A DNA stretch of 13,866 bases, from contig CAZFJE010000074.1 in assembly GCA_964519555.1 (NCBI GenBank), forward strand, positions 1-13,866. Reading direction: 5' to 3'. Positions 1,053-13,866 of this stretch are shown one piece after another. A program made the translations under genes and the position numbers. The stretch's first letter is position 1, and each line of letters starts with the position of its first letter. The notes under the pieces are model-generated. The model worked only from the letters and a program-made list of their open reading frames with translations, had not been told where the DNA came from and searched no databases. Source of the stretch: an uncultured Thermoleophilia bacterium (lineage in GTDB: Bacteria > Actinomycetota > Thermoleophilia > UBA2241).

Positions 1053-2006
1053 TCACGATGGAGGCGCGCCGAAGTCACCAACTCCGTGCCATCGGTCGCC
1101 GCCGATGTTGACATGACAGCCAGCTAGCTGAAGGCGCTGCGCAAGCTGCTGTCGCTTGGAAACGGAGTCGTCGAGACGGAGGATGTGCCGACCTGCGATG
1201 TCACTGAAGGGGCGAACCGTGCCGAGCTGAACAAGCACGGTTCTCTTAGCGTCTCTGCCCATGGCCATTCCAGCCTCAAAGATGACATTCATTCGTGCTT
1301 GAGGCGTGAAAGACTTCTCATGATCGGGGTCGGAGGATTGCTGAAAGTCAGGCAGCAGTCGCCCTTCATCGTCTGGGGTTATCAAGACCACTACCGCGGC
1401 GGCTTGGTCGAATGCTATGTCGAGAATCTCGCCGACATATGGCGTTGGATGACCCGTCCCGGCAACCGCCTCAGACCACTCAATCGGATGTAAGTCGATG
1501 GCGGACAGGAAGTCAATCAGCGAGCGTGCCGCAGCAAGGTCTCGCCCATGGACAACAAAGACGTCGCGCGCGTCGGACGGCTCGCGGCCATTCTCCCTTG
1601 CCATCTCTTCAGCGGTTGCCCTGTCCACGGAGACCTCGGTTCCATTGGATCGCACCTGTGAGGCCATTAGCTCTAAGTGACGAACGGCCGCCTCAAGGAT
1701 TCCTTTTATCTGGTTGCGGTATTCGTGAAACACATGCTGGAAGTCGTTCTTTGAATGCCAGTTGCTGCTGCTCAATACATGATCATCATAATTCATGACC
1801 CGAATGGCAAAGATATTGGTCACGTTAGTGAACTTCACGGTGAGCGGATGATTGTCACCAAAAAGCGAACGCAGTATAAGTTCTGCGTCAGTCTGCCATG
1901 CGGAGAACTGAGATGTCCAAATGTTTACTTCAAGACGTTCTAGCTCGTCCAGTGATGTCTTTATTCTTACTATGGCGTCTGAATGGCTGATTCTGTTGTT
2001 CAACAA
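1053..2006 (-). CDS. TIR-like (Cap12/PycTIR-type) domain protein with an unknown N-terminal domain; putative NADase defence effector
   Basis: The C-terminal half (aa ~148-305, nt 1092-1565) reads DVFVVHGRD...LIDFL...PIEW...VVVLITPDDEG...ARMNVIFEAGMAMG...RPFSDIAG. This matches the bacterial TIR-like nucleotide-binding family pattern (VFIVHG / LLTPDD / RQNVxFExG). The conserved Glu is retained (E244, nt 1275-1277). The start is TTG at 2006 or 2003, after GGAGA. The N-terminal ~145 aa have no recognisable motif and are AT-rich. Confidence 0.72.
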   Translation of the reverse strand: MLNNRISHSDAIVRIKTSLDELERLEVNIWTSQFSAWQTDAELILRSLFGDNHPLTVKFTNVTNIFAIRVMNYDDHVLSSSNWHSKNDFQHVFHEYRNQIKGILEAAVRHLELMASQVRSNGTEVSVDRATAEEMARENGREPSDARDVFVVHGRDLAAARSLIDFLSAIDLHPIEWSEAVAGTGHPTPYVGEILDIAFDQAAAVVVLITPDDEGRLLPDFQQSSDPDHEKSFTPQARMNVIFEAGMAMGRDAKRTVLVQLGTVRPFSDIAGRHILRLDDSVSKRQQLAQRLQLAGCHVNIGGDRWHGVGDFGAPPS

Positions 2007-2054: not shown

Positions 2055-2549
2055 TTAGGTGAGATCCAATGTTAGCGGCGTGCTCTCGTCGCTCTTGGTC
2101 TTTGGAGCCTTCTTGAAAGTCACATTTGTCTCCGACGACACCGGACTTTCGATCCGCGCCGAGCCGTCCAGTAACTTCGCGACTGTGAGAAGCTGAATGC
2201 GAGGATACGCGCTCTGCCCCTCCCATCCCGCGTGGTAGAAGCCCGCCGCCGCCGCGTCTTCGCGCATTGGCTTTGTAGGCTCCGGCATTGTGATGAGGAC
2301 ACCGATAGCGGCGCCCTCGCGTTCGATGACGCCGCGCAGCTCATGGACGTGGTGACGACCCGTGTGCCCGGCCTTCACGCTCAGAATGATTTGACTTGCC
2401 GCCTGTGCGCCGCCTTGCTCCGCAAACAGTACGTTGTATGTCGCGTTGGAGTTGAACGGCGGGTCGAGATAGACGAGGTCGACAGATTCGTCGGCTACAT
2501 AGCGCCGCAAGATGTCGAGATTGTCGCCGTAATAGAGCAGGTTGCCCAC
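2055..2549 (-). pseudogene. Internally deleted N4/N6 DNA methyltransferase remnant (motif IV region fused in frame to a C-terminal nuclease-like tail)
   Basis: NLLYYGDNLDILR...VDLVYLDPPFNSNATYNVLF is a typical MTase N-terminus with the DPPF motif. At about nt 2385-2390 it jumps directly to ...SVKAGH..VHELRGVIEREGAAIGVLITMPEPTKPMREDAAAAGFY...YPRIQLLTV. That sequence is the C-terminal REase-like tail seen in long MTases of this type. The AdoMet-binding FxGxG region is absent. The ORF stays open up to 2684, overlapping cas1, but GTG 2549 directly precedes the conserved N-terminus. Confidence 0.65.
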
Positions 2550-2601: not shown

Positions 2602-4155
2602 TCAAGGGGTTGCGGCCTCTGCGAGGCCTCGCAGCTTTTCCCAATGTCTCGGGTGCGGAATGTACCCCCGCCGAACCCTTGCACACATCGTCAGCGACAG
2701 CCCCGTCGCCGCCTTCATCTTGCGCAGCGACACACCCTCAAGCAGCGGCAGTATCTCGCGCCTGAATACAGCCGGGTCCGGCTTGTCGTGGGTTCGATCC
2801 CATTCGATTTCCTCGCGTCGCCGTTGTGCGGTGGCCTCACCGAGTTTGCGCCGCACTTCCGCGCTATCCATCGGTTCGCGACCCTCCGCGCGCATCTTGG
2901 CAAGCGCGGCAACCCCCGACGCCACGAATGCTATTTCCAGTTGTTGCCGTTCGCCGGGCAAGCAGTCGTCACAGAATTGGCGCTCGCTGTTCGGCAAAGG
3001 TCCGCCGCAAGTTGCGCAGGTCGCGGCCGGTCTGCGCGTCTGCGAGGATATCGGTCTCGTCGGCTTGCGGCGCACGGTGTCGCGCCCGCTGCTGCGGTTT
3101 GCCTGAGTTAGCGGCGTCGGTAGGCGTTCGATCCGCGATGGAGACTTCGAGGCGAGCATGCCCGCGACGTTCTCGACGACCGGCGCAATAGCGCGCGCCC
3201 ATTGAGTAGTCGTCTCCGCGAGGGTGTGCGTCAGGGGCGCAAGTACGCGGCAGACACCTTTTCTGGTCTCAACAAAGTCTTTAGCGGTAAAGGTGCGTGC
3301 CGCGAGCAAGTCGAGTAGATAGGCGTCGACCTGCGGGCGCACCGTTTCCATTAGGTCGAGCACTAATGAGTCGCGGGATTTCTGGTCCGCGTGAAATACT
3401 CCTAACCCCGGATCGAGCCCGCAGGCTAAACAGGCAAAGCGCGTCTCTGCCTCAAGCAATGCGTAGAGGTAATTGAGCATCGCATTTGCGGGATTAGCTG
3501 CGCGACGCGGCGACCCGGTAATCGGCGAGCCACGCTGCCCGAAATTACGCCAATGCTCAGGAGTTGATTTCTCGTCTTTCTTGGCAAAGCGCAGCGTGAT
3601 GTCTCGCCAGACTCCCCAATACGCCGCAGCGCCCGTCGATTCGGCCGTAAGCATTTCCGGCAAAGAAGCGGCATTATCGGCCATTATCCTCGCGGCGGTT
3701 AATTCGGCGGCAGCATTATCCGGGAATATCGACCGCGATAGATTAATTTCCTGACCGGCTAGCTTCGCGCAAAGCACATAGCGCGCTATTTTGAGGCCAG
3801 CGGTATTTGTCGGGGCGAGCGCCAGCGCGCGACGTAGGCGCGGATCGTTTAGCCCATAATTGGCGGAGGCCGCAATTACCTCGCCATCACGGTCGATCTG
3901 CAGAAATGCGATTCCGGCGTCGGTTAACCAGCGCAGCGCCTCGAGGCTAATTGCGCCCTCGTGGCCGACAATAATTAGCCGCTTTATGCCGACAAGTGCT
4001 TTCGCGAAGCTGCGCTCGCGACGAAAACGCCCGATGCCATCGGAGACAATCAGGCTGCGATTGCGAACCCGAACCTGGACGCCGTAGCCGTCGACCACGC
4101 AGACACCGCCCGCGCAGTCGAGGCTTTGGAAGGTTGCGCTAACATAGCTCTGCAT
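2602..4155 (-). CDS. cas1: Cas1-family integrase (stand-alone, casposase-like) with a C-terminal zinc ribbon + HTH extension
   Basis: Cas1 hallmarks are present: TAESTGAAAYW (E172), RRAANPANAMLNYLYALLEAE, and GLDPGLGVFHADQKSRDSLVLDLMETVRPQVD (H255, D267/E270). The N-terminal region (SLIVSDG...IKRLIIVGHEGAISLEALRWLTDAGIAFLQIDRDGEV) matches the Cas1 beta-domain pattern. The C-terminus has CATCGG...FCDDC (aa 380-398) and an HTH-like LRKMKAATGLSLTMCARVRRG (aa 477-497). An SD-like GAAAGGG precedes the ATG. Confidence 0.9.
   Translation of the reverse strand: MQSYVSATFQSLDCAGGVCVVDGYGVQVRVRNRSLIVSDGIGRFRRERSFAKALVGIKRLIIVGHEGAISLEALRWLTDAGIAFLQIDRDGEVIAASANYGLNDPRLRRALALAPTNTAGLKIARYVLCAKLAGQEINLSRSIFPDNAAAELTAARIMADNAASLPEMLTAESTGAAAYWGVWRDITLRFAKKDEKSTPEHWRNFGQRGSPITGSPRRAANPANAMLNYLYALLEAETRFACLACGLDPGLGVFHADQKSRDSLVLDLMETVRPQVDAYLLDLLAARTFTAKDFVETRKGVCRVLAPLTHTLAETTTQWARAIAPVVENVAGMLASKSPSRIERLPTPLTQANRSSGRDTVRRKPTRPISSQTRRPAATCATCGGPLPNSERQFCDDCLPGERQQLEIAFVASGVAALAKMRAEGREPMDSAEVRRKLGEATAQRRREEIEWDRTHDKPDPAVFRREILPLLEGVSLRKMKAATGLSLTMCARVRRGYIPHPRHWEKLRGLAEAATP
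2619..2634 (+). repeat. Perfect 16-bp palindrome ctgcgaggcctcgcag, followed on the plus strand by cttttcc (terminator-like in the plus orientation)
   Basis: Read directly from the sequence. It lies in the last ~10 codons of cas1. An overlapping alternative hairpin ggcctc-tgc-gaggcc sits at 2614-2628. A T-run follows only on the plus strand. Confidence 0.35.
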
Positions 4156-4173
4156 TTCGGAAACCCTTTCTTC

Positions 4174-4204
4174 CGAGTGCCACGCCCCCGGACCGCAGCC
4201 ACGG
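4174..4204 (-). terminator. GC-rich intergenic hairpin between the 387-aa gene and cas1 (attenuator, processing site or T-tract-less terminator)
   Basis: gcccccg-gaccg-cagcca-cggtc-g-cgggggc forms a 12-bp stem with one bulge and a 6-nt loop, 20 nt after the upstream stop codon. No U-tract follows on the minus-strand transcript. Confidence 0.35.
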
Positions 4205-4223
4205 TCGCGGGGGCACTTGTCTG

Positions 4224-5387
4224 CTAGGTCGAGTCTCCTGGTAGTCCGTCGGGGAAGAGCAGGGCCCTAGCCTCGGGATGAGTGACAAGAAAGCCACCGA
4301 CCCTCTCGGGGTCCTCCCGGGCGAACATCTGGACAGCGACCAGCAGACGCTTGAATTGATCCGCGTCGTGGAGGGTCGACTTCAGCCTGGCAGGCGTGAG
4401 CGTCTCGTCTTCGACGATCTCGGGGACTTCGGCCATGAGCTGCTCAAGGATGCCGATGAGCGGCGCGAGGTCAAGCACCGTACGGGTCCCCGGCACGGGC
4501 CGTGGTCCCCTGAAGGCTGGATCGTCGAAGAGCGGCTCCAAGACAAGCAACCAGCGCGCCTGGTCGACAGCATCGCTCGGCTGCAGTGCCGCGAAAAGAC
4601 TCTCGGCACTCTTGCCGCCCGCTTGCCGCGCCACGAAGCCGATTTGGCCGACTTCCACGAGCACCTGCTGGACGTGGTCGCGACAGCGGCAGAGGTCGTC
4701 ATCTGCGAGCGCCGCTAGGCGCTCCGAGTAGCAACCAGACAGCACACTTCGGGCAACCTCGCTGACTTCGACCACGTCGCCGCTGCCCAAGGCCTTTTGG
4801 CCAAGCAGCACACCGAAGAGAAACTGCAGGCCGAGCCCTTCGACGAGCCCAGAGGAAGTGCCGTCGCTCACGGGCGGTGCCAGCAGGGATGCCATGAAGC
4901 TCGGCAACCCACCCTTGCCGACCCGCCGTCTGGCTCGGGAGGCAAGCGCTTCGCTGGGTGCAAGCCGCACGTCCTCGCTATACCCGGCCTCGACGGCCGG
5001 CTGCAGCTCGTCCGGTGACTTTGTGCGAAGGGCATCGGCTCCACTGTCGACGCGCCGAGCCACCTCTTCGAGGAAGCCGCGAACGGTGGCCATCGGCACA
5101 TGGCAGCGCTCCCACCACAGATACCACGCAAGTAGGTCGTGACGGCGGGTGCGCTTCTCCTGGCGCAACTCGCAGATGCGCAGGAGGCGGTCAGCCGCTT
5201 CAGCTGGGTAGATGAACTTTCCGCTGCCGTGTTTCTTGCCTAGCCACTGACGATCGGGTGCCGGCAGCAACCCCTCGCGGTGCCACCTGGCGAACTGCAC
5301 GTCGCTCACGCGGTAGCCGCGCTTTGCAACGAGGCGAACCAGCTCCTGCTGCGTGTGACCGTCAGCCATGGACCGACTATACATCAT
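4224..5387 (-). CDS. Hypothetical protein with an N-terminal HTH-like region (element-specific, unknown function)
   Basis: A long ORF in the cas1 orientation, immediately upstream of cas1. The N-terminus TQQELVRLVAKRGYRVSDVQFARWHREGLLP looks like a wHTH/MerR-type helix-turn-helix. The rest is helical-looking with no motif I recognise. The start could be ATG 5387 or ATG 5369. Confidence 0.65.
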   Translation of the reverse strand: MMYSRSMADGHTQQELVRLVAKRGYRVSDVQFARWHREGLLPAPDRQWLGKKHGSGKFIYPAEAADRLLRICELRQEKRTRRHDLLAWYLWWERCHVPMATVRGFLEEVARRVDSGADALRTKSPDELQPAVEAGYSEDVRLAPSEALASRARRRVGKGGLPSFMASLLAPPVSDGTSSGLVEGLGLQFLFGVLLGQKALGSGDVVEVSEVARSVLSGCYSERLAALADDDLCRCRDHVQQVLVEVGQIGFVARQAGGKSAESLFAALQPSDAVDQARWLLVLEPLFDDPAFRGPRPVPGTRTVLDLAPLIGILEQLMAEVPEIVEDETLTPARLKSTLHDADQFKRLLVAVQMFAREDPERVGGFLVTHPEARALLFPDGLPGDST

Positions 5388-5480: not shown

Positions 5481-7085
5481 ATGGAAACCGACGAACGCAG
5501 ACCTCACCACGAGGCGCAATCGGGCGAGCAGGCTCCCCCCAGGCCGACCGGCCAGCCGGCCATGGTCGCCACGGGCAGCCTGCAGCCTCACCCGCTAAGC
5601 CTGGCCATCTACGGAGACGAAGCGGTCGACCTCGAGCTGGCTGCCAGCATCGCACAGCACGGCGTCCTCGAGCCACTCTCGGTCCTTGAGGACGGCACCA
5701 TCGTCTCTGGTCACCGCCGCTGGCGGGCAGCCCAGGCCGCCGGCCTTGCCAGTGTGCCGGCCACAGTCGTGAGCTTTGACGACCCCCTTGACGAGCACAC
5801 GGCCCTCATCGAACACAACCGCCAGCGCGTCAAGAGCTACAGCCAACGCATGCGTGAGGCCGACCAGCTCGAGACAATCGAGCGCGAGCGGGCCGAGCAG
5901 CGTCGGCGTCATCACGGCGGCACCGCCCCGGGGCGTTCGGCAGACACTGCCGGCAACATTGCCGGCAGTGAGGCCGGCGAGACCCGTGACAAGGTCGCCG
6001 CCGCAGTCGGCATGAAGGCGCGTAGCTTTGCCAAGGTGCGCAGCGTCTACAAGGCTGCCCAGCAGGGCAGCGAGGTCGCAGCCAAACAGCTGAGCGCCCT
6101 GGATGCCGGCGAGATCACGATCAACGCCGCCTACCAGGATGTGCGTCGCGAGGAGGCCGGACGCTGCACCACAGGCCTGGTCGATCCCGACGCAGCACCC
6201 CAAGCGCCGGAGCAGGTTACCAGCGAGCTCGGTGACCTCTGGATACTTGGCGAGCATCGACTTGCTTGCGGCGATGCCACCGACGCAGCGCTGGTGGACC
6301 GTCTGATGGCCGGCGAGCGGGCCGTGCTGATGGCCACCGACCCTCCCTATCTGGTCGACTACGACGGCGGCAACCACCCGCAGTCCTGGCGGCACAACGG
6401 CGAACACTCAGACCCGGAGACTCAGACCAAGCACTGGGATGCCTACGTCGACCAGCGTAGCGCCGAGGATTTCTACAGCGCCTACCTGGGCAGCGCCCTG
6501 GCCGAGGCACTCACTGAGCGTCCGACCATCTACCAGTTCTTCGCCATGATGCGCTTCGAGACCGTGCTGGCCGCTTGGCGGGCGAACGGCCTGCTTGCAC
6601 ACCAAGTTGTGATCTGGCACAAGAGCCGGATCGTGCTCGGTCGTAGCTGGTACATGTACGACTACGAGCCCTGCCTGGTCGGCTGGATCGCGGGCCGCCA
6701 GCCGGAGGCCGAGCGTCGTCCGCCGGCCAACGCCGCCGCCGTCTGGACCGTCGCCTCGACCGAGGGCAACGAGGCCACGATCTCGAGCCATCCCACGGTC
6801 AAGGCCGTCGAGCTCATTCGCCGGACGATTGCCTACCACACCCAGCCCGGCGAGCTGCTCTACGAACCCTTCGCCGGCTCGGGCACCGCCATAGTCGCCA
6901 GCGAGATGACCGGCCGGCGCTGCTATGCCGTCGAGCTTGCCCCGCTCTTTGTCGACCAGGCGGTGCTGCGCTGGCAGCGCTTCAGCGGCAAGCAGGCGAC
7001 CCTGCAGGAGAGTGGCCTCAGCTTCGCCGAGGTGGCCGCCCAGCGCGCCACAGGCGACCGTTCGGCATCTGCAGCGAGGCCCTGA
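5481..7085 (+). CDS. ParB-like nuclease domain fused to a beta-class N4/N6 DNA methyltransferase
   Basis: The N-terminus LQPHPLSLAIYGDE...HGVLEPLSVLEDGTIVSGHRRWRAAQAAGLASVPATVV is a ParB/Srx-type domain with the GHRR motif. The MTase part reads LGEHRLACGDATD...LMATDPPY (motif IV, aa 286-290), then HPTVKAVELIRR and EPFAGSGTA (motif I, aa 464-469). Motif IV before motif I is the beta-class order. GAGGTG SD precedes the start. Confidence 0.88.
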   Translation: METDERRPHHEAQSGEQAPPRPTGQPAMVATGSLQPHPLSLAIYGDEAVDLELAASIAQHGVLEPLSVLEDGTIVSGHRRWRAAQAAGLASVPATVVSFDDPLDEHTALIEHNRQRVKSYSQRMREADQLETIERERAEQRRRHHGGTAPGRSADTAGNIAGSEAGETRDKVAAAVGMKARSFAKVRSVYKAAQQGSEVAAKQLSALDAGEITINAAYQDVRREEAGRCTTGLVDPDAAPQAPEQVTSELGDLWILGEHRLACGDATDAALVDRLMAGERAVLMATDPPYLVDYDGGNHPQSWRHNGEHSDPETQTKHWDAYVDQRSAEDFYSAYLGSALAEALTERPTIYQFFAMMRFETVLAAWRANGLLAHQVVIWHKSRIVLGRSWYMYDYEPCLVGWIAGRQPEAERRPPANAAAVWTVASTEGNEATISSHPTVKAVELIRRTIAYHTQPGELLYEPFAGSGTAIVASEMTGRRCYAVELAPLFVDQAVLRWQRFSGKQATLQESGLSFAEVAAQRATGDRSASAARP

Positions 7086-7113
7086 GCCTCAGTACTTTTG
7101 GAGGGAGAAAGCC

Positions 7114-7728
7114 GTGTCAGAAAGGTACAAGAGCGGGCCGTATCGTCCGACCAGAGGTCGCTTCGCAGGTCGCGAGTTTGCCTCAAAGCGGCAGTATGAG
7201 AATGCACTCGCCCAACTGAAGGGCCACGCCACGCGCAGCCGGCTGGTGCGGACCAGTGGCAAGAAGGTCGGCCCCAAAAGCCATGGGAACCTGGCAACCT
7301 CGGAGCGACAGGCGCGCTCACGAGCCCTGGCTGTCACCTCACGTATGGCGCGGGAGCGTATCTCGCTGGCCAAGGCGGCTCGGCTTGAGGGCACCACGGT
7401 GGGCAACGTTCACAAGTGGGCCGAACCTGCCCTGGAACGTAAACCCAGCGGTCGCTACGCCGCCAAGCCCAATCGTCTCTACCGGCGGATGGTGGCGATC
7501 ACAACCGACGGCGTCGTCGAGGTCGGCGTGCGCAGCTCGGGTCAAGCCTCGCTTATCTCCGTCCACCACACGGCGGTGAAGCGCTTCCTGGCCACCGGCG
7601 ACGAGGCGGGCCTGAGGCGATTCCGTAACAAGACGGTCGACGGCAGGCGGCTTGAGACCGATCCCGCCGCCCTCGAGGAACTCGAGCGGGTCGGTCAGTT
7701 CGAGTACGAGTCGATCTACGAGGACTAA
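7114..7728 (+). CDS. Hypothetical protein with a central HTH-like segment
   Basis: GTG 7114 is preceded by a strong SD, GGAGGG (7100-7105), 28 nt after the MTase stop. It is in frame with the listed 6925-7728 ORF, whose upstream part overlaps the MTase gene. The segment ERISLAKAARLEGTTVGNVHKW looks like an HTH. I recognise no other motif. Confidence 0.62.
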   Translation: MSERYKSGPYRPTRGRFAGREFASKRQYENALAQLKGHATRSRLVRTSGKKVGPKSHGNLATSERQARSRALAVTSRMARERISLAKAARLEGTTVGNVHKWAEPALERKPSGRYAAKPNRLYRRMVAITTDGVVEVGVRSSGQASLISVHHTAVKRFLATGDEAGLRRFRNKTVDGRRLETDPAALEELERVGQFEYESIYED

Positions 7729-7739
7729 ACCGAGGAACC

Positions 7740-8204
7740 GTGGAGAAAGATCCCGCCAAGAACGACCGCCGCCGGTCGCGTCGTGCACGCAAGCTCGGCG
7801 AGGACGCTGCGTGCATTCTGTGCGGTTACCATCGTTGCCTCACAGGACTGAAGCAGGTGGACCGGCGCTTCCTTGAGGAGCACCACCTTCTTGGCTGGGT
7901 AACAGACGACACGCTCACCGCCTCTCTGTGCCGTAACTGCCACGCCGAGGTGACCGAGGATCAGCTCACTGACGGCTTCGACTTCAGGTCCGCAGAGCGG
8001 TCCGCCGAAGACGAGGCGAGGTACCTTCTGCTGGCAAGCGGGCGCTTCCTGTCGAGGCTCGGGCCGAGAATGACGGATGTCGCCTATCGGTTAGACTCCG
8101 GGACATGTCTGTCAGCGCCCGCGACATCCGCCCATGAGCCTCGAAAAGATCGCCCTGCGCGCCTACGGCGAACCAAGCGCCGGGGCGCGGCGCTCTACCA
8201 GTAG
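7740..8204 (+). CDS. HNH endonuclease
   Basis: CILCG...LEEHHLLG...LCRNCHAEV shows a CxxC...HH...N..CxxCH arrangement typical of the HNH/His-Me finger (nt ~7812-7964). The GTG start comes 11 nt after the preceding stop. The 3' end overlaps polB by 71 nt. Confidence 0.72.
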   Translation: MEKDPAKNDRRRSRRARKLGEDAACILCGYHRCLTGLKQVDRRFLEEHHLLGWVTDDTLTASLCRNCHAEVTEDQLTDGFDFRSAERSAEDEARYLLLASGRFLSRLGPRMTDVAYRLDSGTCLSAPATSAHEPRKDRPARLRRTKRRGAALYQ

Positions 8205-11200
8205 GTCGCGCAAGGGCTTCAAGCCGCGCCACGTTCTTATTTTCGACACGGAGACCACCATCGACGCCGCTCAGGCGCTGCTCTTCGGGTCGTATCGCTA
8301 CGTGCGTATCCGCTGGCAGGGCAATACGCCGACTCTCTCCACGGTCGAAGAGGGCCTGATCTACGCCGACGAGCTGCCCGATGAGAACGCCGAACGCTTT
8401 ACCGTCCTGCAGGACTACCGGGCAAGCCACCCGGCGGCGCTCGATCCCACCTACAGCCACGGCCTGCCGGTCGCGCTCAGGTTCTACTCCCGCCGCGAGT
8501 TTCTCACGGAGATGTTCTATCCGGCGGTCTACGAAAGCAGGGCTTTGGTCGCCGGCTTCAACCTGCCCTTCGATCTCTCTCGCCTGGCCGTCGACTGGTC
8601 GGCGGCACGCAAGGCATTCGCGGGTGGATTCTCGCTGGCCGTCTTTGAGTACGAAAAGGACGGCGTCTGGCGCGAGAACCGCTTCAAGCCCCGCATCGTC
8701 GTTAAGTCAATCGACAGCAAGCGTGCGCTCAAAGGCTTCGCCGGCACCTTCTCACCCGACGAGATCGACACGATCCCCGAGGGCGAGACCGAGCCCGCAG
8801 AGGGCTACATCTTTCGCGGCAACTTCCTCGACCTGCGCACGCTGGGCTTCGTGCTCACCGACAAGGGCCACACTCTGGAGTCGGCGTGTGAGGCCTTCGG
8901 CGTTGAACACGGTAAGACCAAGCCCAACAAGCACGGCGAGATCACACCCGAGTACATCGACTACAACCGCCGCGACGTGCTGGCCACAACCGAGCTGCTT
9001 GAAAAGACACTTGCCGAGTACTACCGCCACCCGGTCGACCTGCAGCCCACGCAGGCCTACTCGCCGGCTTCGCTCGGCAAGGCCTACCTGCGCGCCCTCG
9101 GTATCGCTCCGGTACTCAACCGCCAGTCTGACTTTCGTAAGGACGTGCTCGGCTATGCCATGCAGGCCTACTTTGGCGGGCGGGCCGACTGTCGCCTGCG
9201 TCGCCTGCCCGTGCCGGTCGCGTATACCGACTTCACGAGCATGTACCCGTCCGTCAATGCCCTTATGGACAACTGGCGGCTGCTCACCGCGAAGCGCATC
9301 GAGGTTCTCGACGCCACACGCGAGGTTCAGGAGCTGCTTGCCCGCGTAACTATCGACGACTGCTTTGCTCCCGAGCTGTGGCCGCAGCTGCGTGTGCTCG
9401 TCAAGGTGCGGCCTTCAGGTCAGCCCCTGTCTACCCGCGCCCGCTACGACCGTCGCCGCGTCCCCGCCTCCGCCAAGGCACGCAATAAGGAGCGCCAGGG
9501 CCAAGGCTGGCAGATCGGCATCAACTACCTGACAAGCGAGAAGCCGCTGTGGCTCGCCCTGCCCGACCTCATCGCCGCGAAGATCCTAGGCGGCAAGGTG
9601 CCCGAGGTGCTCGAGGCTTGGAACCTCGTGCCGGTCGGCAAACAGTCCAGCCTCTCGGCGGTCGAGCTGCGCGGCTCGATTGCGGTTGATCCAACCAAGA
9701 CCGACTTCTTTTGCACAGTCATCGAAGAGCGCCAGCGCGTGCGCGCGAAGGCCAAGGCCGACGGCCGTGAGAACGATCCGCTGGAGGGTTTCCTCAAGGT
9801 GCTCGCCAACTCGACAAGCTACGGCGTCTTTGCCGAGTTCGTGCGTCACGAGCTGACCGGCAAGCGCACCGAGTCGGTGCGTGTCTGGGACACCGAGGGC
9901 GAGAGTTTCGCCGCAAAGACGCACGCCCCCGAGCTGCCGGGCGAGTACTGCTTCCCGCCGCTTGCCGCCTTCATCACCTCGGCGGCGCGCCTCATGCTGG
10001 CCTTGCTCGAGGCCCGCGTCACAGAGCGCGGTGGTAGCTACGTCTTTTGCGACACCGATTCCATGGCGATTGTGGCAGACGAGGAGCCCCACCTCATCGA
10101 ATGCCCCGGCGGACCGCATCTGACCGACGAGGGCAAACCGGCCGTGCTCGCCTTAGGCTGGGATGAGGTCGACGAGATCCGCGAGCAGTTTAACCGGCTC
10201 AACCCCTACGACCGAAGCGCCGTGCCAGCCCTCGTTAAGATCGAAAGGGAGAACTTCGACGACAAGGGGCGGCGCGTGCCGCTGTTCTGCTACGCGATCA
10301 GCGCCAAGCGCTATGTGCTCTTCTACAAAGACAAACGGGGAGAGCTGTCAATGCCCAAGGCCTCCGAGCACGGCCTCGGCCACCTGCTCAACCCTTACGA
10401 CCCCGACGAGGGCAACCGCATCGAAGACGGCGCTGCAGCCGATGGCAAGAGCAAGCCCAACTGGATCAAGGAAGCCTGGCACGACATCCTCGCCAAGGAA
10501 GTGACCTTGCGGGCCGCCAAGTCGCCTTCGTGGTGGCACGAGCCGGCCCTTGTTCGCATCACGATCTCAAGCCCTGCGGTGCTCGAGCCCTTCGGGGGCA
10601 TGAACACGGTCAAGCCCACCTACCGCGAGCGCGTGAAGCCCTTCAACTTCATGCTCTCGGCGCGGATCGAGGATTTCGGCTATCCGCTCGAGGTGACCGA
10701 CCCTCACCACTTCCATCTGGTCACGCGCTACACGCGCAAGCCGCGCGAGGCGCTCAAGGTCACCTGGTTCAACCGCTACGACGGCAAGCCGTACCGCGTG
10801 ACCATCGGAAGTTCGTCCGACCTTGCCGGCCAGGCCCGCATCCTCACCTACGGCGAGATGCTTGAGGACTACCGCTACCGGCCGGAGTACAAAAGCACTG
10901 CGCCGGACGGACAGACTTGCGGCCGGGAGACATCCGGTCTGCTAGGTAGGCGGTCGATTGAGGCTCTCAAGTTCATCTATGTCGGTAAGGAGTCAAACCG
11001 CCTCGAGGAAGCGCAGCAAGGCCTGCTGCACGATGAGGAAGAGGCGCTCAGCGAGTTCGACGATCCGCGCCACAGCGACTTTTGCGAGTTCGTGCTGCCG
11101 GTGCTTGCCACGATGCCGCTGTCGGTGTTGGCCACAGCGACCGGGCTACATCCGAGCACACTCAAGAGGATTCGAGCCGGGACGGCGCAGCCGCGTACTA

Positions 11201-11436
11201 ACAACGAAGACGCCCTCTGGGTGGTCGCCATCGAACACGCGCGGGCGGAGCTTACGAGGCGCGGTTTTCAGCTGCCTGAGACGCACCTTGCGGCGTTGCG
11301 CGTCTACATCGAAGCGATGTCAGCCCAGCCGCGGCAGTGCCCAGTCTGCGGGGAGCCGATGGTCAGCAGGCGTCAAAGGTATTGCAGCAACAGATGCCGC
11401 CAGCGAGCGGTACGTGCTCGGTCTCGAGCGAACTGA
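8134..11436 (+). CDS. polB: Family B DNA polymerase with 3'-5' exonuclease domain and a ~350-aa C-terminal extension ending in HTH + zinc ribbon
   Basis: Exonuclease motifs: ExoI IFDTETT (D38/E40, nt 8245), ExoII GFNLPFDLSRL, ExoIII YIDYNRRD. Polymerase motifs: motif A YTDFTSMYPS (D366, nt 9229), motif B KVLANSTSYG (K555, nt 9796), motif C YVFCDTDS (D640/D642, nt 10051), and KxY AKRY (K725). The C-terminus has LSVLATATGLHPSTLKRIRAG and CPVCGEP...RYCSNRCRQRA. Confidence 0.92.
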   Translation: MSLEKIALRAYGEPSAGARRSTSRSRKGFKPRHVLIFDTETTIDAAQALLFGSYRYVRIRWQGNTPTLSTVEEGLIYADELPDENAERFTVLQDYRASHPAALDPTYSHGLPVALRFYSRREFLTEMFYPAVYESRALVAGFNLPFDLSRLAVDWSAARKAFAGGFSLAVFEYEKDGVWRENRFKPRIVVKSIDSKRALKGFAGTFSPDEIDTIPEGETEPAEGYIFRGNFLDLRTLGFVLTDKGHTLESACEAFGVEHGKTKPNKHGEITPEYIDYNRRDVLATTELLEKTLAEYYRHPVDLQPTQAYSPASLGKAYLRALGIAPVLNRQSDFRKDVLGYAMQAYFGGRADCRLRRLPVPVAYTDFTSMYPSVNALMDNWRLLTAKRIEVLDATREVQELLARVTIDDCFAPELWPQLRVLVKVRPSGQPLSTRARYDRRRVPASAKARNKERQGQGWQIGINYLTSEKPLWLALPDLIAAKILGGKVPEVLEAWNLVPVGKQSSLSAVELRGSIAVDPTKTDFFCTVIEERQRVRAKAKADGRENDPLEGFLKVLANSTSYGVFAEFVRHELTGKRTESVRVWDTEGESFAAKTHAPELPGEYCFPPLAAFITSAARLMLALLEARVTERGGSYVFCDTDSMAIVADEEPHLIECPGGPHLTDEGKPAVLALGWDEVDEIREQFNRLNPYDRSAVPALVKIERENFDDKGRRVPLFCYAISAKRYVLFYKDKRGELSMPKASEHGLGHLLNPYDPDEGNRIEDGAAADGKSKPNWIKEAWHDILAKEVTLRAAKSPSWWHEPALVRITISSPAVLEPFGGMNTVKPTYRERVKPFNFMLSARIEDFGYPLEVTDPHHFHLVTRYTRKPREALKVTWFNRYDGKPYRVTIGSSSDLAGQARILTYGEMLEDYRYRPEYKSTAPDGQTCGRETSGLLGRRSIEALKFIYVGKESNRLEEAQQGLLHDEEEALSEFDDPRHSDFCEFVLPVLATMPLSVLATATGLHPSTLKRIRAGTAQPRTNNEDALWVVAIEHARAELTRRGFQLPETHLAALRVYIEAMSAQPRQCPVCGEPMVSRRQRYCSNRCRQRAVRARSRAN

Positions 11437-11698
11437 CTTTCCGATGCCTTGGGGGGCGCAGCGCAATCTCACCCTTCACGTCTCTGCCATCGCCACCGCA
11501 GAGGTCGTCGGTGACGCCCGCATGGGTAAGGCGTCTGATCTGGCGACCTGCCGTCCCGATTACCTCACGCGCAGGTACCATATCGATCTGGTTCCAGTCG
11601 AAGTCACTGATCGGTCGACTGTCGAAGGTGCAGTTGGTGAAATCCACAGTGTCGAAGCTAGCCAAGGTCTGCGGTGCGCGGTGCAGGGTGAAGGCCAA
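11363..11698 (-). pseudogene. Possible pentapeptide-repeat protein fragment (low confidence)
   Basis: A TTG-initiated ORF. Residues F15, F20, F25, I30, W35 and M40 (LASFD TVDFT NCTFD SRPIS DFDWN QIDM; nt 11579-11656) show strict 5-residue hydrophobic periodicity, as in pentapeptide repeats. The ORF tail runs 74 nt antisense into the polB 3' end, which is unusual for a genuine gene. Confidence 0.25.
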
Positions 11699-11740: not shown

Positions 11741-12295
11741 CTAGACGTTGGCCAGGATTTCGGCTCGCTTTGTTTCGTACTCGTCCGCGCTAAGAAGTCC
11801 TTGACTCCGCAGCGATGCGAGGTCGCGAAGGCGCCGCGCAACGAGCGGCTCCCCCTCGTTCCTCACGGTCGCCACGACGGGGCGATGGGTTGGTGAGCGA
11901 ACCGTGCGCACAACAGCAGGAATTGCTAGTGCAATAAATAAGCCGAACAATATTATTGTCACTAATTCTAAGAATAATGCTGTCCCATGATCTAGATACG
12001 AACTTCTCCCACCTTCAAGAACAGAAGTCACAGACGGTACTGTCGCAAGCGACCTTATGTAAAAAAATAATGTCAGACAAATTACAGCGAGTATAGATAG
12101 GGTGACGGCCAAGACAGACGATATCGTGGATTTCACGAGACCCGTCATGTCCAGCTTGCGCGGTCTATTTGCCCGACTCGTTTGCAGACTCGGAGGGCGC
12201 ACGACCGGCGCGCTCGGTACGAGCGCCGTTCCGCACTTGCGACAGAACAAGTCCCCCGTAATGGGTGGACTGCTACACTGCGGACAGAGAGCCAT
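11741..12295 (-). CDS. Zinc-ribbon membrane protein with a C-terminal SHOCT domain
   Basis: ATG 12295 is preceded by GAGGA. MALCPQCS...LFCRKCG is a zinc ribbon. There are two hydrophobic helices (ISSVLAVTLSILAVICLTLFFYI and ALFLELVTIILFGLFIALAIPAVV). The C-terminus LRDLASLRSQGLLSADEYETKRAEIL matches the SHOCT pattern. The ORF stays open to 12346, but the paralogues start directly at the zinc ribbon. Confidence 0.8.
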   Translation of the reverse strand: MALCPQCSSPPITGDLFCRKCGTALVPSAPVVRPPSLQTSRANRPRKLDMTGLVKSTISSVLAVTLSILAVICLTLFFYIRSLATVPSVTSVLEGGRSSYLDHGTALFLELVTIILFGLFIALAIPAVVRTVRSPTHRPVVATVRNEGEPLVARRLRDLASLRSQGLLSADEYETKRAEILANV

Positions 12296-12423
12296 GATTG
12301 TCCTCGCGGTTGGTCGTATCTGTCTCGTTCTCGACTCCGACGGCAAAGAGCCCCATTCGTTGATATGAGTTTCCTTGGTGGTTGTCGCGCTGGCTAAGCA
12401 ACGTCGGGTCGGCGCGTTCTTTC

Positions 12424-13566
12424 CTAGGGTCGAGTGGCGGGAATGGTGACGCCGCTATCTCCCACCGCCCACCCGTGGTTGACATCCGCGAAGGCCACTG
12501 CCTCGGGTTCGTTTGTGCCTGTACTTTGGAGGGTCCAATGGGTGCCACGGTCGCTACTTGAAAGGATGACGCCGCCGGTGGTGTTGTCAGCGCCCACGGC
12601 CCATCCATGCGAGCTATCGGCGAAAGAGACACTGTAAAGCTGGGCAGTCGTACCTGAGCTCTGCACATTCCAGGTAGCGCCGCCGTCGGTGGTGCCAAAT
12701 ATGGTTCCGTTGTCGCCCACTGCCCAGCCGTGCGAAGCATCAGCGAAAGAGACACCACGGAGCGTGCTTGCGGTACCCAAGTCTTTCGCGTCCGGGCCGA
12801 AGCCATGCTGCACGTTCCAGGTAGCGCCGCCGTCGGCGGTGGCAAGTATGGTGCCGTTGTCGCCCACCGCCCAGCCGTGCGAAGCGTCGGAGCAGGTGAC
12901 GGCGTTAAGGCCCGGAGTCGTGCCCGGGTCCTGGGCGCCCCAAGTGGCGCCGCCGTCGGTGGTTCCCAAGATGACGCTCGAGCGTGTCGAGGGGTCCACG
13001 CCCACCGCCCAACCGTGAGACGGATCGGCAAAGGAAATACCGCTGAGGAAACTCGTCGTGCCCGGGTCCTGGGCGCTCCAAGTTACACCACCGTCGGTGG
13101 TTACCAAGATGACGCTCGCACCCGTCGTCGAAGTGTCATCGCCCACCGCCCAGCCGTGCGAGCGATCGACGAACCAGACACCAAAAAGCTGAGCTGTCGT
13201 ACCCGAATTTTGCGCCCCCCAGGTAGTGCCGCCGTCGGTGGTGGCAAGGATTGTGCCACCGTCACCCACTGCCCAGCCGTGAGAAGCATCGCCGAAGCAG
13301 ACACCATGAAGCGTTTGGGTAGTCGGGTGGGCAACGCGATAATGATGCGAATGTCCCATGCCAAACACGAGCGCACACGCGATGGCAGCAAGTACGACGA
13401 CAACGACACCAATGAGGATGGCGCGGTGTCGTCTTCGGGTGGGGCGGGCTTCGCTGGCCTGAGGCTCGCCGGGCACAGCGGACGGTGTTGCAATCGCGGC
13501 GCCACATTTAGCGCAGAATTGGTCGCTTTCCACCGTGAGGTTGCCACACTGTCTGCAAAATGGCAC
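12424..13566 (-). CDS. Zinc-ribbon / single-pass membrane protein with a seven-bladed beta-propeller ectodomain (BNR/Ycf48-like repeats)
   Basis: GTG 13566 (VPFCRQCG...DQFCAKCG) aligns codon-for-codon with ATG 181 of the left paralogue. The TM helix is AILIGVVVVVLAAIACALVFGMG. Seven repeats of D.SHGWAVG....I..TTDGG.TW..Q follow. The listed ORF extension up to 13806 is Arg/Gly-rich and lies in the conserved non-coding block. Confidence 0.85.
   Translation of the reverse strand: MPFCRQCGNLTVESDQFCAKCGAAIATPSAVPGEPQASEARPTRRRHRAILIGVVVVVLAAIACALVFGMGHSHHYRVAHPTTQTLHGVCFGDASHGWAVGDGGTILATTDGGTTWGAQNSGTTAQLFGVWFVDRSHGWAVGDDTSTTGASVILVTTDGGVTWSAQDPGTTSFLSGISFADPSHGWAVGVDPSTRSSVILGTTDGGATWGAQDPGTTPGLNAVTCSDASHGWAVGDNGTILATADGGATWNVQHGFGPDAKDLGTASTLRGVSFADASHGWAVGDNGTIFGTTDGGATWNVQSSGTTAQLYSVSFADSSHGWAVGADNTTGGVILSSSDRGTHWTLQSTGTNEPEAVAFADVNHGWAVGDSGVTIPATRP
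12427..13314 (-). repeat. Intragenic tandem repeats (7 propeller blades, about 40-49 codons each)
   Basis: The SHGWAVG / NHGWAVG motif occurs seven times. The blade copies starting at 12670 and 12817 (147 nt apart) share 64/69 nt over the first 69 nt in my hand alignment. Confidence 0.8.
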
Positions 13567-13741
13567 GCAACGCCTCCGACGCAGGGTTAGTACAACATAC
13601 TGTCGGCTTCGTCCCGCTCGCGCTTGAGCCTCAAAGAGCGGCGTTCCTCTTCGCAGCGAGGCAAGAAACACCCCTTCGGCGCGTCTCCGCCGCCCACGGT
13701 GACGGTGGGGGGTGACGTTGTCCCGACGGCCGGACGCCGAG
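13344..13741. repeat. Right arm of the long imperfect inverted repeat (partner 1-395)
   Basis: See the left arm. The inner limit is where ...tgtgcgctcgtgtttggcatgggacattcgcatc stops matching 361-394. The outer limit is set only by the left window edge, so the true arm may be longer. Confidence 0.85.
13601..13664 (-). promoter_or_regulatory. Right copy of the conserved upstream block (candidate promoter/operator)
   Basis: 62/64 identical to the reverse complement of 81-144. 13601-13644 is a perfect 44-nt match. The block lies -35 to -98 from GTG 13566. The same nested palindrome maps to 13614-13641. Confidence 0.4.
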
Positions 13742-13866
13742 CCCCCGATCCGTCGGCACCCGTTGCACCCGCTCCATCCTGTCTGTGCCTGAGCCCCCGA
13801 ACCCAACCCCCGCAGCCCCGCCCGTACGCGGGCTCCCGGCCCTCGTGCGACGACCGTAGGGCAAGG

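Follow-up and report, generated by a model that had tools for sequence, protein, structure and literature searches.

A bacterial family 3 casposon with homologous helix-turn-helix domains at the C-termini of its casposase and DNA polymerase

The DNA analysed here, a stretch of 13,866 nucleotides (the window) from an uncultured Thermoleophilia bacterium of soil or sediment (contig CAZFJE010000074.1, assembly GCA_964519555.1), is almost all of a ~14-kb casposon that belongs to family 3 and is of the AceAut-C1 type. The CRISPR adaptation machinery is presumed to descend from casposons, and in this element the casposase (Cas1) and the B-family DNA polymerase (PolB) each end in a homologous helix-turn-helix (HTH) domain of ~55 residues. 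Our overall reading is that of a ~14-kb family 3 casposon in which both enzymes bear homologous docking HTHs, either exchanged between the two genes or held alike by a shared partner, and we assign to it a probability of about 0.8. Each HTH would act as a docking domain, recruiting its enzyme either to DNA (of the casposon or of the target) or to some partner common to both.

Results

Homology of the Cas1 and PolB tails

The two enzymes and the segments of their tails are located in the window as follows.

2602–4155, minus strand: casposase (Cas1), 517 aa, consisting of core, zinc ribbon, helical hairpin and HTH (Pfam Cas_Cas1 match; likeness to AceAut-C1)
2962–3018, minus strand: Cas1 zinc ribbon, aa 380–398, CxxCG-x10/11-CxxC (in 109/109 full-length homologues; AlphaFold2 tail model)
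2791–2961, minus strand: Cas1 linker, aa 399–455, two long predicted helices (AlphaFold2 tail model)
2614–2787, minus strand: Cas1 HTH module, aa 457–514 (hhalign against PolB tails; AlphaFold2; Foldseek)
8134–11436, plus strand: B-family DNA polymerase of the casposon family 2/3 type, 1100 aa, with C-terminal HTH and zinc ribbon (core hidden Markov model, HMM)
11059–11235, plus strand: PolB HTH module, aa 976–1034 (hhalign against Cas1 tails; AlphaFold2; Foldseek)
11338–11433, plus strand: PolB zinc ribbon, aa 1069–1088 (CxxCG-x11-CxxxC), and a basic C-terminal helix (weak match to Pfam DUF2116; AlphaFold2)

A preliminary description of this DNA had proposed that Cas1 and PolB share a C-terminal module composed of a zinc ribbon and an HTH, and the residues and coordinates that it quoted for these segments are exact. 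The HTH-like segments, FRREILPLLEGVSLRKMKAATGLSLTMCARVRRG in Cas1 (aa 464–497) and FCEFVLPVLATMPLSVLATATGLHPSTLKRIRAG in PolB (aa 983–1016), have the 12 identities counted by hand, spread over 34 aligned positions. By BLASTP, the tails share 19/61 identities (E 7e-5), and their Smith-Waterman score of 59, as compared with 32 ± 5.4 for shuffled sequences, was reached by 1/2000 shuffles. Cas1 and PolB each have homologues by the thousand in which the tail is conserved, and the family profiles based upon these are aligned by hhalign with a probability of 97.9–98.9% (E 3e-13 to 3e-17) over 56–64 columns, whereas controls in which the PolB alignment was reversed or column-shuffled yield ≤1.9%. The similarity first noted by eye is therefore significant at the profile-profile level for the HTHs, with the ribbons falling outside of the shared unit. 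Reciprocally, in a six-frame translation of the window, an HMM of the Cas1 HTH finds PolB (E 1.7e-7) and an HMM of the PolB HTH finds Cas1 (E 5.9e-8), while neither finds anything else among the six-frame open reading frames (ORFs) of the window, the next match having an E-value of about 0.5. Furthermore, the likeness takes in the upstream helix and also a G-x-x-x-P turn that follows the HTH.

AlphaFold2, run on the tails with the family alignments, predicts HTH and zinc-ribbon folds in both of them, just as had been expected from their sequences. The Cas1 tail model has a mean predicted local distance difference test score (pLDDT) of 92.8 (86–97 at the zinc ribbon), and its HTH comprises predicted helices at residues 461–472, 477–484, 488–495 (the recognition helix) and 502–515. 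Between the ribbon and the HTH lie the linker helices, aa 399–423 and 432–455 (H28-52 and H61-84 of the model). The PolB tail model has a mean pLDDT of 87.7 (93–98 over the HTH), with predicted HTH helices at 982–992, 996–1003, 1007–1015 and 1022–1042, after which come another two helices, then the ribbon and lastly a basic helix at the terminus (helix 142–155 of the tail). With the sequences aligned as by hhalign, all four predicted HTH helices of Cas1 coincide with those of PolB. The top Foldseek neighbours of both tails (PolB having been searched in PDB and BFVD) are XRE/Cro-type HTHs, among them Aca11 (9lx2), the N-terminal domain of AcrIIA15 (8jfr), restriction-modification controller proteins, C.Kpn2I (4yba), SinR (3qq6), HipB, 434 Cro (2cro) and phage HTH_XRE, with alignments of 51–60 columns, root-mean-square deviations of 1.8–3 Å and target-normalised TM scores of up to 0.70. 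Although these XRE/Cro-C1 regulators are the best structural neighbours, they are free-standing repressors, whereas the module of the window is fused to enzymes and exhibits its own DPxxDxF..LPxL leader helix as well as, in Cas1, a G-x-x-(V)PHPRHW motif. Pfam matches of the module to HTH_3, HTH_31 and HTH_26 are all sub-threshold, and the curated cut-off is attained for no HTH family. A sequence search of the PDB with the Cas1 tail profile returned generic zinc-ribbon noise only, the tail of 6OPM, which is disordered in the structure, not being among the hits. As modelled, the module is a four-helix XRE/Cro-like HTH that follows a conserved 'DPxxDxF..hLPxL' helix.

Specificity and distribution of the module

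A combined module profile (A3) was searched against 1.84 billion cluster representatives at E ≤ 1e-3 and found 3854 of them, not the huge XRE superfamily. Each of the best 150 of these 3854 has a match aligning to the tail of the Cas1 family, the proteins being either full-length casposases or pieces of them, and at least two of the 150 (P0371 and P0381) look like fragments of PolB tails. No unrelated carrier was found among the same best 150, which speaks against the module being a ubiquitous tail. Several apparent carriers with non-Cas1 N-termini (P0282, P0295, P0333 and others) were rejected, as they look like frameshifted or mis-called high-GC ORFs bearing a Cas1 tail. Some casposases carry the module in tandem, with 2–3 C-terminal copies (P0241–P0271; loci L022, L036, L048, L069 and L072).

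A Cas1-family scan of species-representative genomes yielded 471 loci in at least 7 phyla, all in metagenome-assembled genomes (MAGs), which include Actinomycetota, Chloroflexota, Acidobacteriota, Gemmatimonadota, Eremiobacterota, Dormibacterota and others. This type of casposon is very common in soil and sediment MAGs, far above the handful of bacterial casposons described in the papers cited here, and there are MAGs with two or more copies (L001/L002, L042/L055, L054/L058 and L061/L062). For an analysis of gene neighbourhoods, 79 of the 471 loci were fetched (L001–L079), in 48 of which the PolB ORF reaches the end of the core. In most of these 79, cas1 is again paired with polB, and the survey of such pairs that the preliminary description had called for places the HTH module in 42/48 PolBs adjoining a related Cas1 and in nearly all of the related Cas1 proteins. 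Wherever the module is matched in the 79 loci, the ORF is that of Cas1 or PolB or else a short one, mostly next to these, apart from a few isolated copies (L038, L045 and L061). This lineage thus conserves the pairing of Cas1 and PolB HTHs, which is also a known trait of casposons.

The domain is short, the individual Foldseek hits are not significant and no Pfam HTH family is matched at its curated threshold, all of which would be in keeping with a resemblance that arose by chance or that is generic to any two HTH domains. Such an origin is scarcely credible given the profile-profile E-values, which reversed and shuffled controls fail to approach, and the reciprocal HMM matches at ~1e-7, with none elsewhere in the window. 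It would also leave unexplained why module matches in the 79 loci keep to Cas1 and PolB ORFs or mostly to their immediate neighbours, why 3854 representatives are recovered out of 1.84 billion instead of the XRE superfamily, and why the likeness reaches beyond the HTH into the upstream helix and the G-x-x-x-P turn.

Zinc ribbons

The other half of the proposed module fared differently. The Cas1 ribbon, CATCGGPLPNSERQFCDDC (aa 380–398), and the PolB ribbon, CPVCGEPMVSRRQRYCSNRC (aa 1069–1088), do have CxxCGxP and 11 residues between the cysteine pairs in common, as originally pointed out, and both of these putative metal-binding segments are modelled confidently by AlphaFold2. A single composite module of ribbon and HTH, which was duplicated or moved as a whole and later permuted between the two enzymes, would account for the presence of both parts in both proteins, for the common CxxCGxP and spacer and for hhalign probabilities that range from 56 to 92%, the highest over 18 columns. 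However, we consider this scenario to be very improbable. The hhalign matches of the ribbons cover 17–18 columns only, and the ribbon cross-HMM comparisons are not significant (E 0.07 and 0.33), being outscored by unrelated zinc-ribbon ORFs of the window. The subtypes also differ consistently. In Cas1, cysteines C380, C383, C395 and C398 are invariant and the second knuckle is CxxC in 109/109 tails, whereas it is CxxxC in 25/25 PolB ribbons, in all of which it is followed by a basic R-x-R-A-x-R helix. Moreover, the ribbon is found in 109/109 Cas1 homologues, but in only 25/113 PolB homologues and in 6/48 PolBs adjoining a related Cas1 (100% as opposed to 12–22%). Lastly, ribbon and HTH are separated by a 57-residue helical hairpin in the Cas1 model and by two different helices in that of PolB.

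The PolB C-terminus, CxxCG-x11-YCSxxCRxRAxR, resembles the DUF2116-type treble clef (PF09889, 'probable treble clef'; E 8e-4 to 0.01), albeit below the cut-off, with 19.7 bits against a gathering score of 26.8. The Cas1 ribbon has no match to DUF2116 and yields weak generic Pfam hits only (DZR_2 and NOB1). Judging from these comparisons, the likeness of the two ribbons is only generic. The differing subtypes, together with the sporadic occurrence of the PolB ribbon, indicate that zinc ribbon plus HTH is the product of two independent fusions and not one unit. Consequently, of the shared tail first proposed, the homology of the HTHs stands, while the ribbon as a shared unit and the swapped order of a single module do not. 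The PolB of the window's clade has gained an unrelated treble-clef-like ribbon downstream of its HTH, and the ribbon of the casposase is obligatory.

Evolution of the HTHs within and between casposon families

For comparison, family 2 casposases and PolBs were retrieved and the four resulting HTH profiles were compared by hhalign. The Cas1 and PolB HTHs match each other with 98.9% probability in family 3 and likewise with 98.9% in family 2, or 96% (E 3.8e-9) once the outlier L093 is removed. Between families, the family 2 Cas1 profile (105 tails) matches the Cas1 or PolB module of the window with ≤7% (7% for Cas1 against Cas1), and the family 2 and family 3 PolB HTHs match with 38–48% over 17 columns. 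In agreement with this, the window tails do not belong to the family 2 HTH type (that of M. mazei residues 342–406), even though the PolB HTH is placed after a conserved GKE(S/A)N motif in family 2 and family 3 alike. That paralogues are closer than orthologues suggests either domain exchange after the family split or co-evolution under a common constraint. Being alike within each family and diverged between families, the HTHs have probably been exchanged between cas1 and polB or constrained by a shared partner.

In L093, a family 2 metagenomic casposon, the HTH tails of the casposase (3673–4923, minus strand) and PolB (6968–9637, plus strand) are much closer to one another than in other family 2 elements. 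They are 51% identical over 51 aa (E 2e-18), which reads as if one of the two genes had recently acquired its HTH as a copy of the other's. A stronger version of the argument, in which the Cas1 and PolB HTHs evolve in concert through repeated exchange or through strong co-evolution driven by a common ligand (a DNA site or a protein), is put forward here only tentatively. No statement of such concerted evolution was found in the casposon papers cited.

The element, its genes and its termini

The casposon identity of the window rests upon the likeness of its Cas1 core to that of AceAut-C1, the match of its PolB core, the presence of an HNH nuclease and the inverted repeats at the contig ends. 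Pfam Cas_Cas1 matches Cas1 aa 20–301 (E 1.2e-37), and the catalytic residues E235, H255, D267 and E270 are invariant in 40 homologues. Identity of the core is highest with the family 3 Cas1 of AceAut-C1 (45.6% over 296 aa, E 3e-73), followed by StrAlb-C1 (33%), HenMar-C1 (31%), NitAL212-C1 (30%) and the family 2 element MetFor-C1 (26%), with 30–41% for other bacterial family 3-type Cas1 proteins in Krupovic's alignment; the assignment to family 3 is accordingly a ranking by pairwise Cas1 identity. A core HMM built from PolB homologues matches the family 2 PolB of MetFor-C1 with E 2e-186 (HMM positions 9–847). The polymerase has the ExoI motif FDTETT and the motif C FCDTDS, the latter fitting the PolB_CDTDS group, which includes the polymerase of the A. 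boonei casposon (PMC7544198). A weak, local match of PolB to Pfam DNA_pol_B_2 had prompted us to consider a protein-primed or primer-independent PolB, as in a pipolin-like element, and this was rejected in light of the core HMM match. As is typical of casposons, cas1 occurs without CRISPR, there being no repeat array and no other cas domain among the ORFs scanned with Pfam. No tRNA gene was found in the element sequence. The two enzyme genes are transcribed divergently from the element centre, and the genes between them, the termini and part of the cargo are listed below.

4224–5387, minus strand: 387-aa protein adjoining Cas1 (position conserved in L082, L084 and L085)
5481–7085, plus strand: fusion of ParB_N and an N6/N4 DNA methyltransferase (Pfam ParB_N E 1.5e-12; N6_N4_Mtase E 1.4e-12)
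7117–7728, plus strand: conserved protein of ~204 aa with an HTH-like stretch, ISLAKAARLEGTTVGNVHKW (204-aa gene at the equivalent position in L082, L083 and L087)
7740–8204, plus strand: HNH endonuclease, a casposon family 2/3 hallmark, overlapping the polB start (BLASTP E 2.3e-9 to the MetFor-C1 HNH)
1–417: left terminal inverted repeat, its outer end beyond window and contig (L086 self-pairing)
13321–13866: right terminal inverted repeat, its outer end beyond window and contig (L086 self-pairing)
1053–2006, minus strand: CAP12/Pycsar-type TIR-domain protein (cargo)
about 2055–2549, minus strand: short NA-iREase1/methylase-remnant gene (cargo)

The small HNH ORF contains the motif CxxC...EEHH...CxNCH and, despite having no Pfam hit, matches the HNH of MetFor-C1 (7180–7518 of L080) at the E-value given. 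The 387-aa protein has neither a Pfam hit nor a hit to the shared module, and its N-terminus reads like an HTH. For the ~204-aa protein, there is no significant Pfam hit and no shared-module hit. The small HTH-like proteins belonging to the family 2/3 core gene set are weakly supported here (ORF204 versus F2_213, E 0.056).

The window corresponds to bases 190–14055 of its source contig, L086 (14,098 bp), in which bases 1–606 pair with 13510–14098, with 100% identity over the outer 98 nt and 71–85% further in, to ~600 bp. The inverted repeats, of at least 606 bp, run into both contig ends, beyond which lie the outer ends and any target-site duplication of this copy. As the outermost 98 nt pair perfectly, the assembly probably broke within the terminal inverted repeat (TIR). 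Close relatives are organised likewise. The relative L001 has a perfect 382-bp TIR (184–565 / 14260–14641) ending in CGGGATAGGGGATAGGG and abutted by a 12-bp direct repeat, TCAACAGGAGCC (a target-site duplication), and is apparently a complete casposon that inserted recently. Inverted repeats of 64 and 109 nt, 12.2 kb apart, are present in the relatives L002 and L085, respectively. There is no detectable similarity between the TIRs of the window and L085, or between those of L001 and L086, and no convincing repeated motif was found inside the TIRs of L001 and L086. A search of the window and of related loci for short TIRs lying just past the stop codons of cas1 and polB likewise gave nothing consistent. 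A right element end at window position 11470, where homology to the 87% relative L082 stops, was rejected, since it is the contig ends that hold the real inverted repeats; position 11470 is instead the boundary between core and cargo.

Cargo separates the TIRs from the Cas1..PolB core on both sides (181–2549 and 11741–13806). Besides the two genes listed above, it includes a Zn-ribbon/DUF4352 protein, a Zn-ribbon-SHOCT protein and a BNR/PSII_BNR repeat protein. The direct repeats of 93–181 nt (63–87% identity) at 12436–13314 lie within the BNR-repeat gene and correspond to the repeats of its protein. The relative L085 also encodes a BNR protein, plus a TIR_2 gene adjoining PolB, and defence-type genes may be part of the cargo of casposons in the window's clade. 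Between elements, the Cas1 half and the PolB half are reshuffled, as seen from two contigs (8209 and 120885 bp), L082 and L085: the closest Cas1 relatives (77–79% identity) adjoin PolBs ~49% identical to that of the window, whereas L082, the 87% PolB relative, has a Cas1 with ~81% DNA identity.

Discussion

The pairing of HTHs on Cas1 and PolB is not itself new. Krupovic et al. 2014 reported similar HTHs on the two proteins in family 2, and Table S2 of the same paper lists PolB-HTH for ten casposons, including AceAut-C1 of family 3, which is annotated as Cas1-ZBD-HTH and 'PolB-HTH ... Phage 434 Cro-like HTH', and NitAL212-C1, annotated as 'PolB-HTH ... VanU' (PMC4046053). In their HHpred searches, family 2 tails matched 3hot, 4l5e and 1x3u, while family 3 PolB tails matched 1zug (Cro) and 3t76 (VanU) (PMC4046053). 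The pairing was repeated in a 2023 review. Since it has been in print from 2014 onward, the suggestion in the preliminary description that such a domain had not been described for a PolB was mistaken. It should be noted that the 2014 statement of Cas1/PolB HTH similarity concerned family 2 only (PMC4046053), whereas here the similarity is shown statistically for a family 3 clade.

Among known elements, AceAut-C1 is the closest counterpart, as it combines a Cas1 of the same core-ZBD-HTH arrangement, a Cro-like PolB-HTH, an HNH, a bacterial host and long TIRs (602 bp versus at least 606 bp in the window element), the tails being likened by published annotation. It differs in its cargo and in its size (~20 kb versus ~14 kb), and the PolB of the window has the additional C-terminal zinc ribbon. 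The family 2 elements (M. mazei, A. boonei and MetFor-C1) similarly have related HTHs at the C-termini of both casposase and PolB, along with an orthologous PolB core and a homologous HNH. Unlike the window element, they have no zinc ribbon, archaeal hosts and short TIRs, and their HTH sequences bear no detectable likeness to the module described here.

Functional information on these HTHs comes from family 2. In M. mazei, the HTH is essential for integration, as a casposase deleted for it (ΔHTH) is inactive; the domain is disordered in the crystal, no binding of DNA by it was detected in isolation, and recognition of the sequence adjoining the integration site was proposed as its role (Hickman et al. 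2020, PMC6977970). The preliminary description's portrayal of this HTH as implicated in DNA-end binding is at odds with that work. Beguin et al. 2019 describe the casposase HTH's role as 'to be investigated'. By analogy with the M. mazei enzyme, the HTH of the family 3 casposase would be needed for productive integration, while that of PolB would tether the replicase to the element.

Another possibility is that the HTHs serve protein contacts or regulation, such as Cas1–PolB association, oligomerisation, docking on the two small casposon proteins or auto-repression of the divergent operons. This appears to be unlikely, although the XRE/Cro fold is typical of small repressors, cas1 and polB do diverge from the element centre, and two or three tandem modules occur in some casposases. 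HTH domains fused to transposases usually have element or target DNA as their ligand. The family 2 data can be cited on both sides, because the isolated HTH fails to bind DNA, yet the ΔHTH casposase also fails in purified in vitro integration, where no other casposon proteins are present (PMC6977970).

Several observations weigh against our preferred reading, in which homologous docking HTHs were exchanged between the genes or kept alike by a shared partner. Firstly, the Cas1 and PolB HTHs of one element resemble each other no more closely than those taken from different elements (mean BLOSUM score 34.8 vs 34.4, p 0.44), and the same holds for the recognition helix alone (p 0.10); family 3 accordingly gives no sign of exchange that is still under way, or of co-adaptation specific to single elements. 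Secondly, the recognition helices differ, that of Cas1 being strongly conserved (S-x-R/T-Y/M-C-S/A-x-I-R-R-G) and that of PolB variable. Thirdly, the family 2 PolB profile is shallow (7–8 sequences), which limits the power of the between-family comparison. In addition, single Foldseek E-values are not significant (0.1–1.5; all >0.01, and >0.1 in the two PDB searches), as is to be expected for 55 residues, so that the fold is assigned from the agreement among the hit lists. The outermost termini of the window's copy lie outside of the contig, and DNA binding has been demonstrated for no casposase HTH (PMC6977970).

Some of these observations bear most directly upon one particular form of partnership, namely that the shared HTH targets both casposase and PolB to one sequence in the casposon termini, thereby coupling replication to excision and integration. 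The homology of the two HTHs is what one would expect in this case, a common ligand would explain the similarity of paralogues within a family as well as the divergence of orthologues between families, and long TIRs could carry the binding sites. We nonetheless regard it as rather doubtful. Within elements, the HTHs of Cas1 and PolB do not co-vary, whether the domain or the recognition helix is considered, and the consensus recognition helices of the two proteins differ. The Cas1 HTH is near-identical in elements with unrelated TIRs (the window versus L085, and L001 versus L086), and no repeated motif was found in the TIRs of L001 and L086. Furthermore, the published proposal for family 2 is recognition of the target site, by a domain that does not bind DNA in isolation (PMC6977970). 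The lack of co-variation and the constancy of the Cas1 recognition helix in spite of unrelated TIRs argue only weakly against a shared terminal site, and the case for the TIR as the common partner is weakened to that extent.

What the present analysis adds to the published pairing is that it extends, on strong statistical grounds, to a very large clade of bacterial, family 3-like casposons (471 loci), that the two tails have confident structural models and clear domain boundaries, and that the pattern of similarity within and divergence between families hints at a common ligand of integrase and replicase. If this is true, such a ligand would provide a handle on how copying and insertion are coordinated in self-synthesizing transposons. 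Likewise, concerted evolution of the two HTHs, should it prove to be the case, would imply a physical coupling of integration and self-replication.

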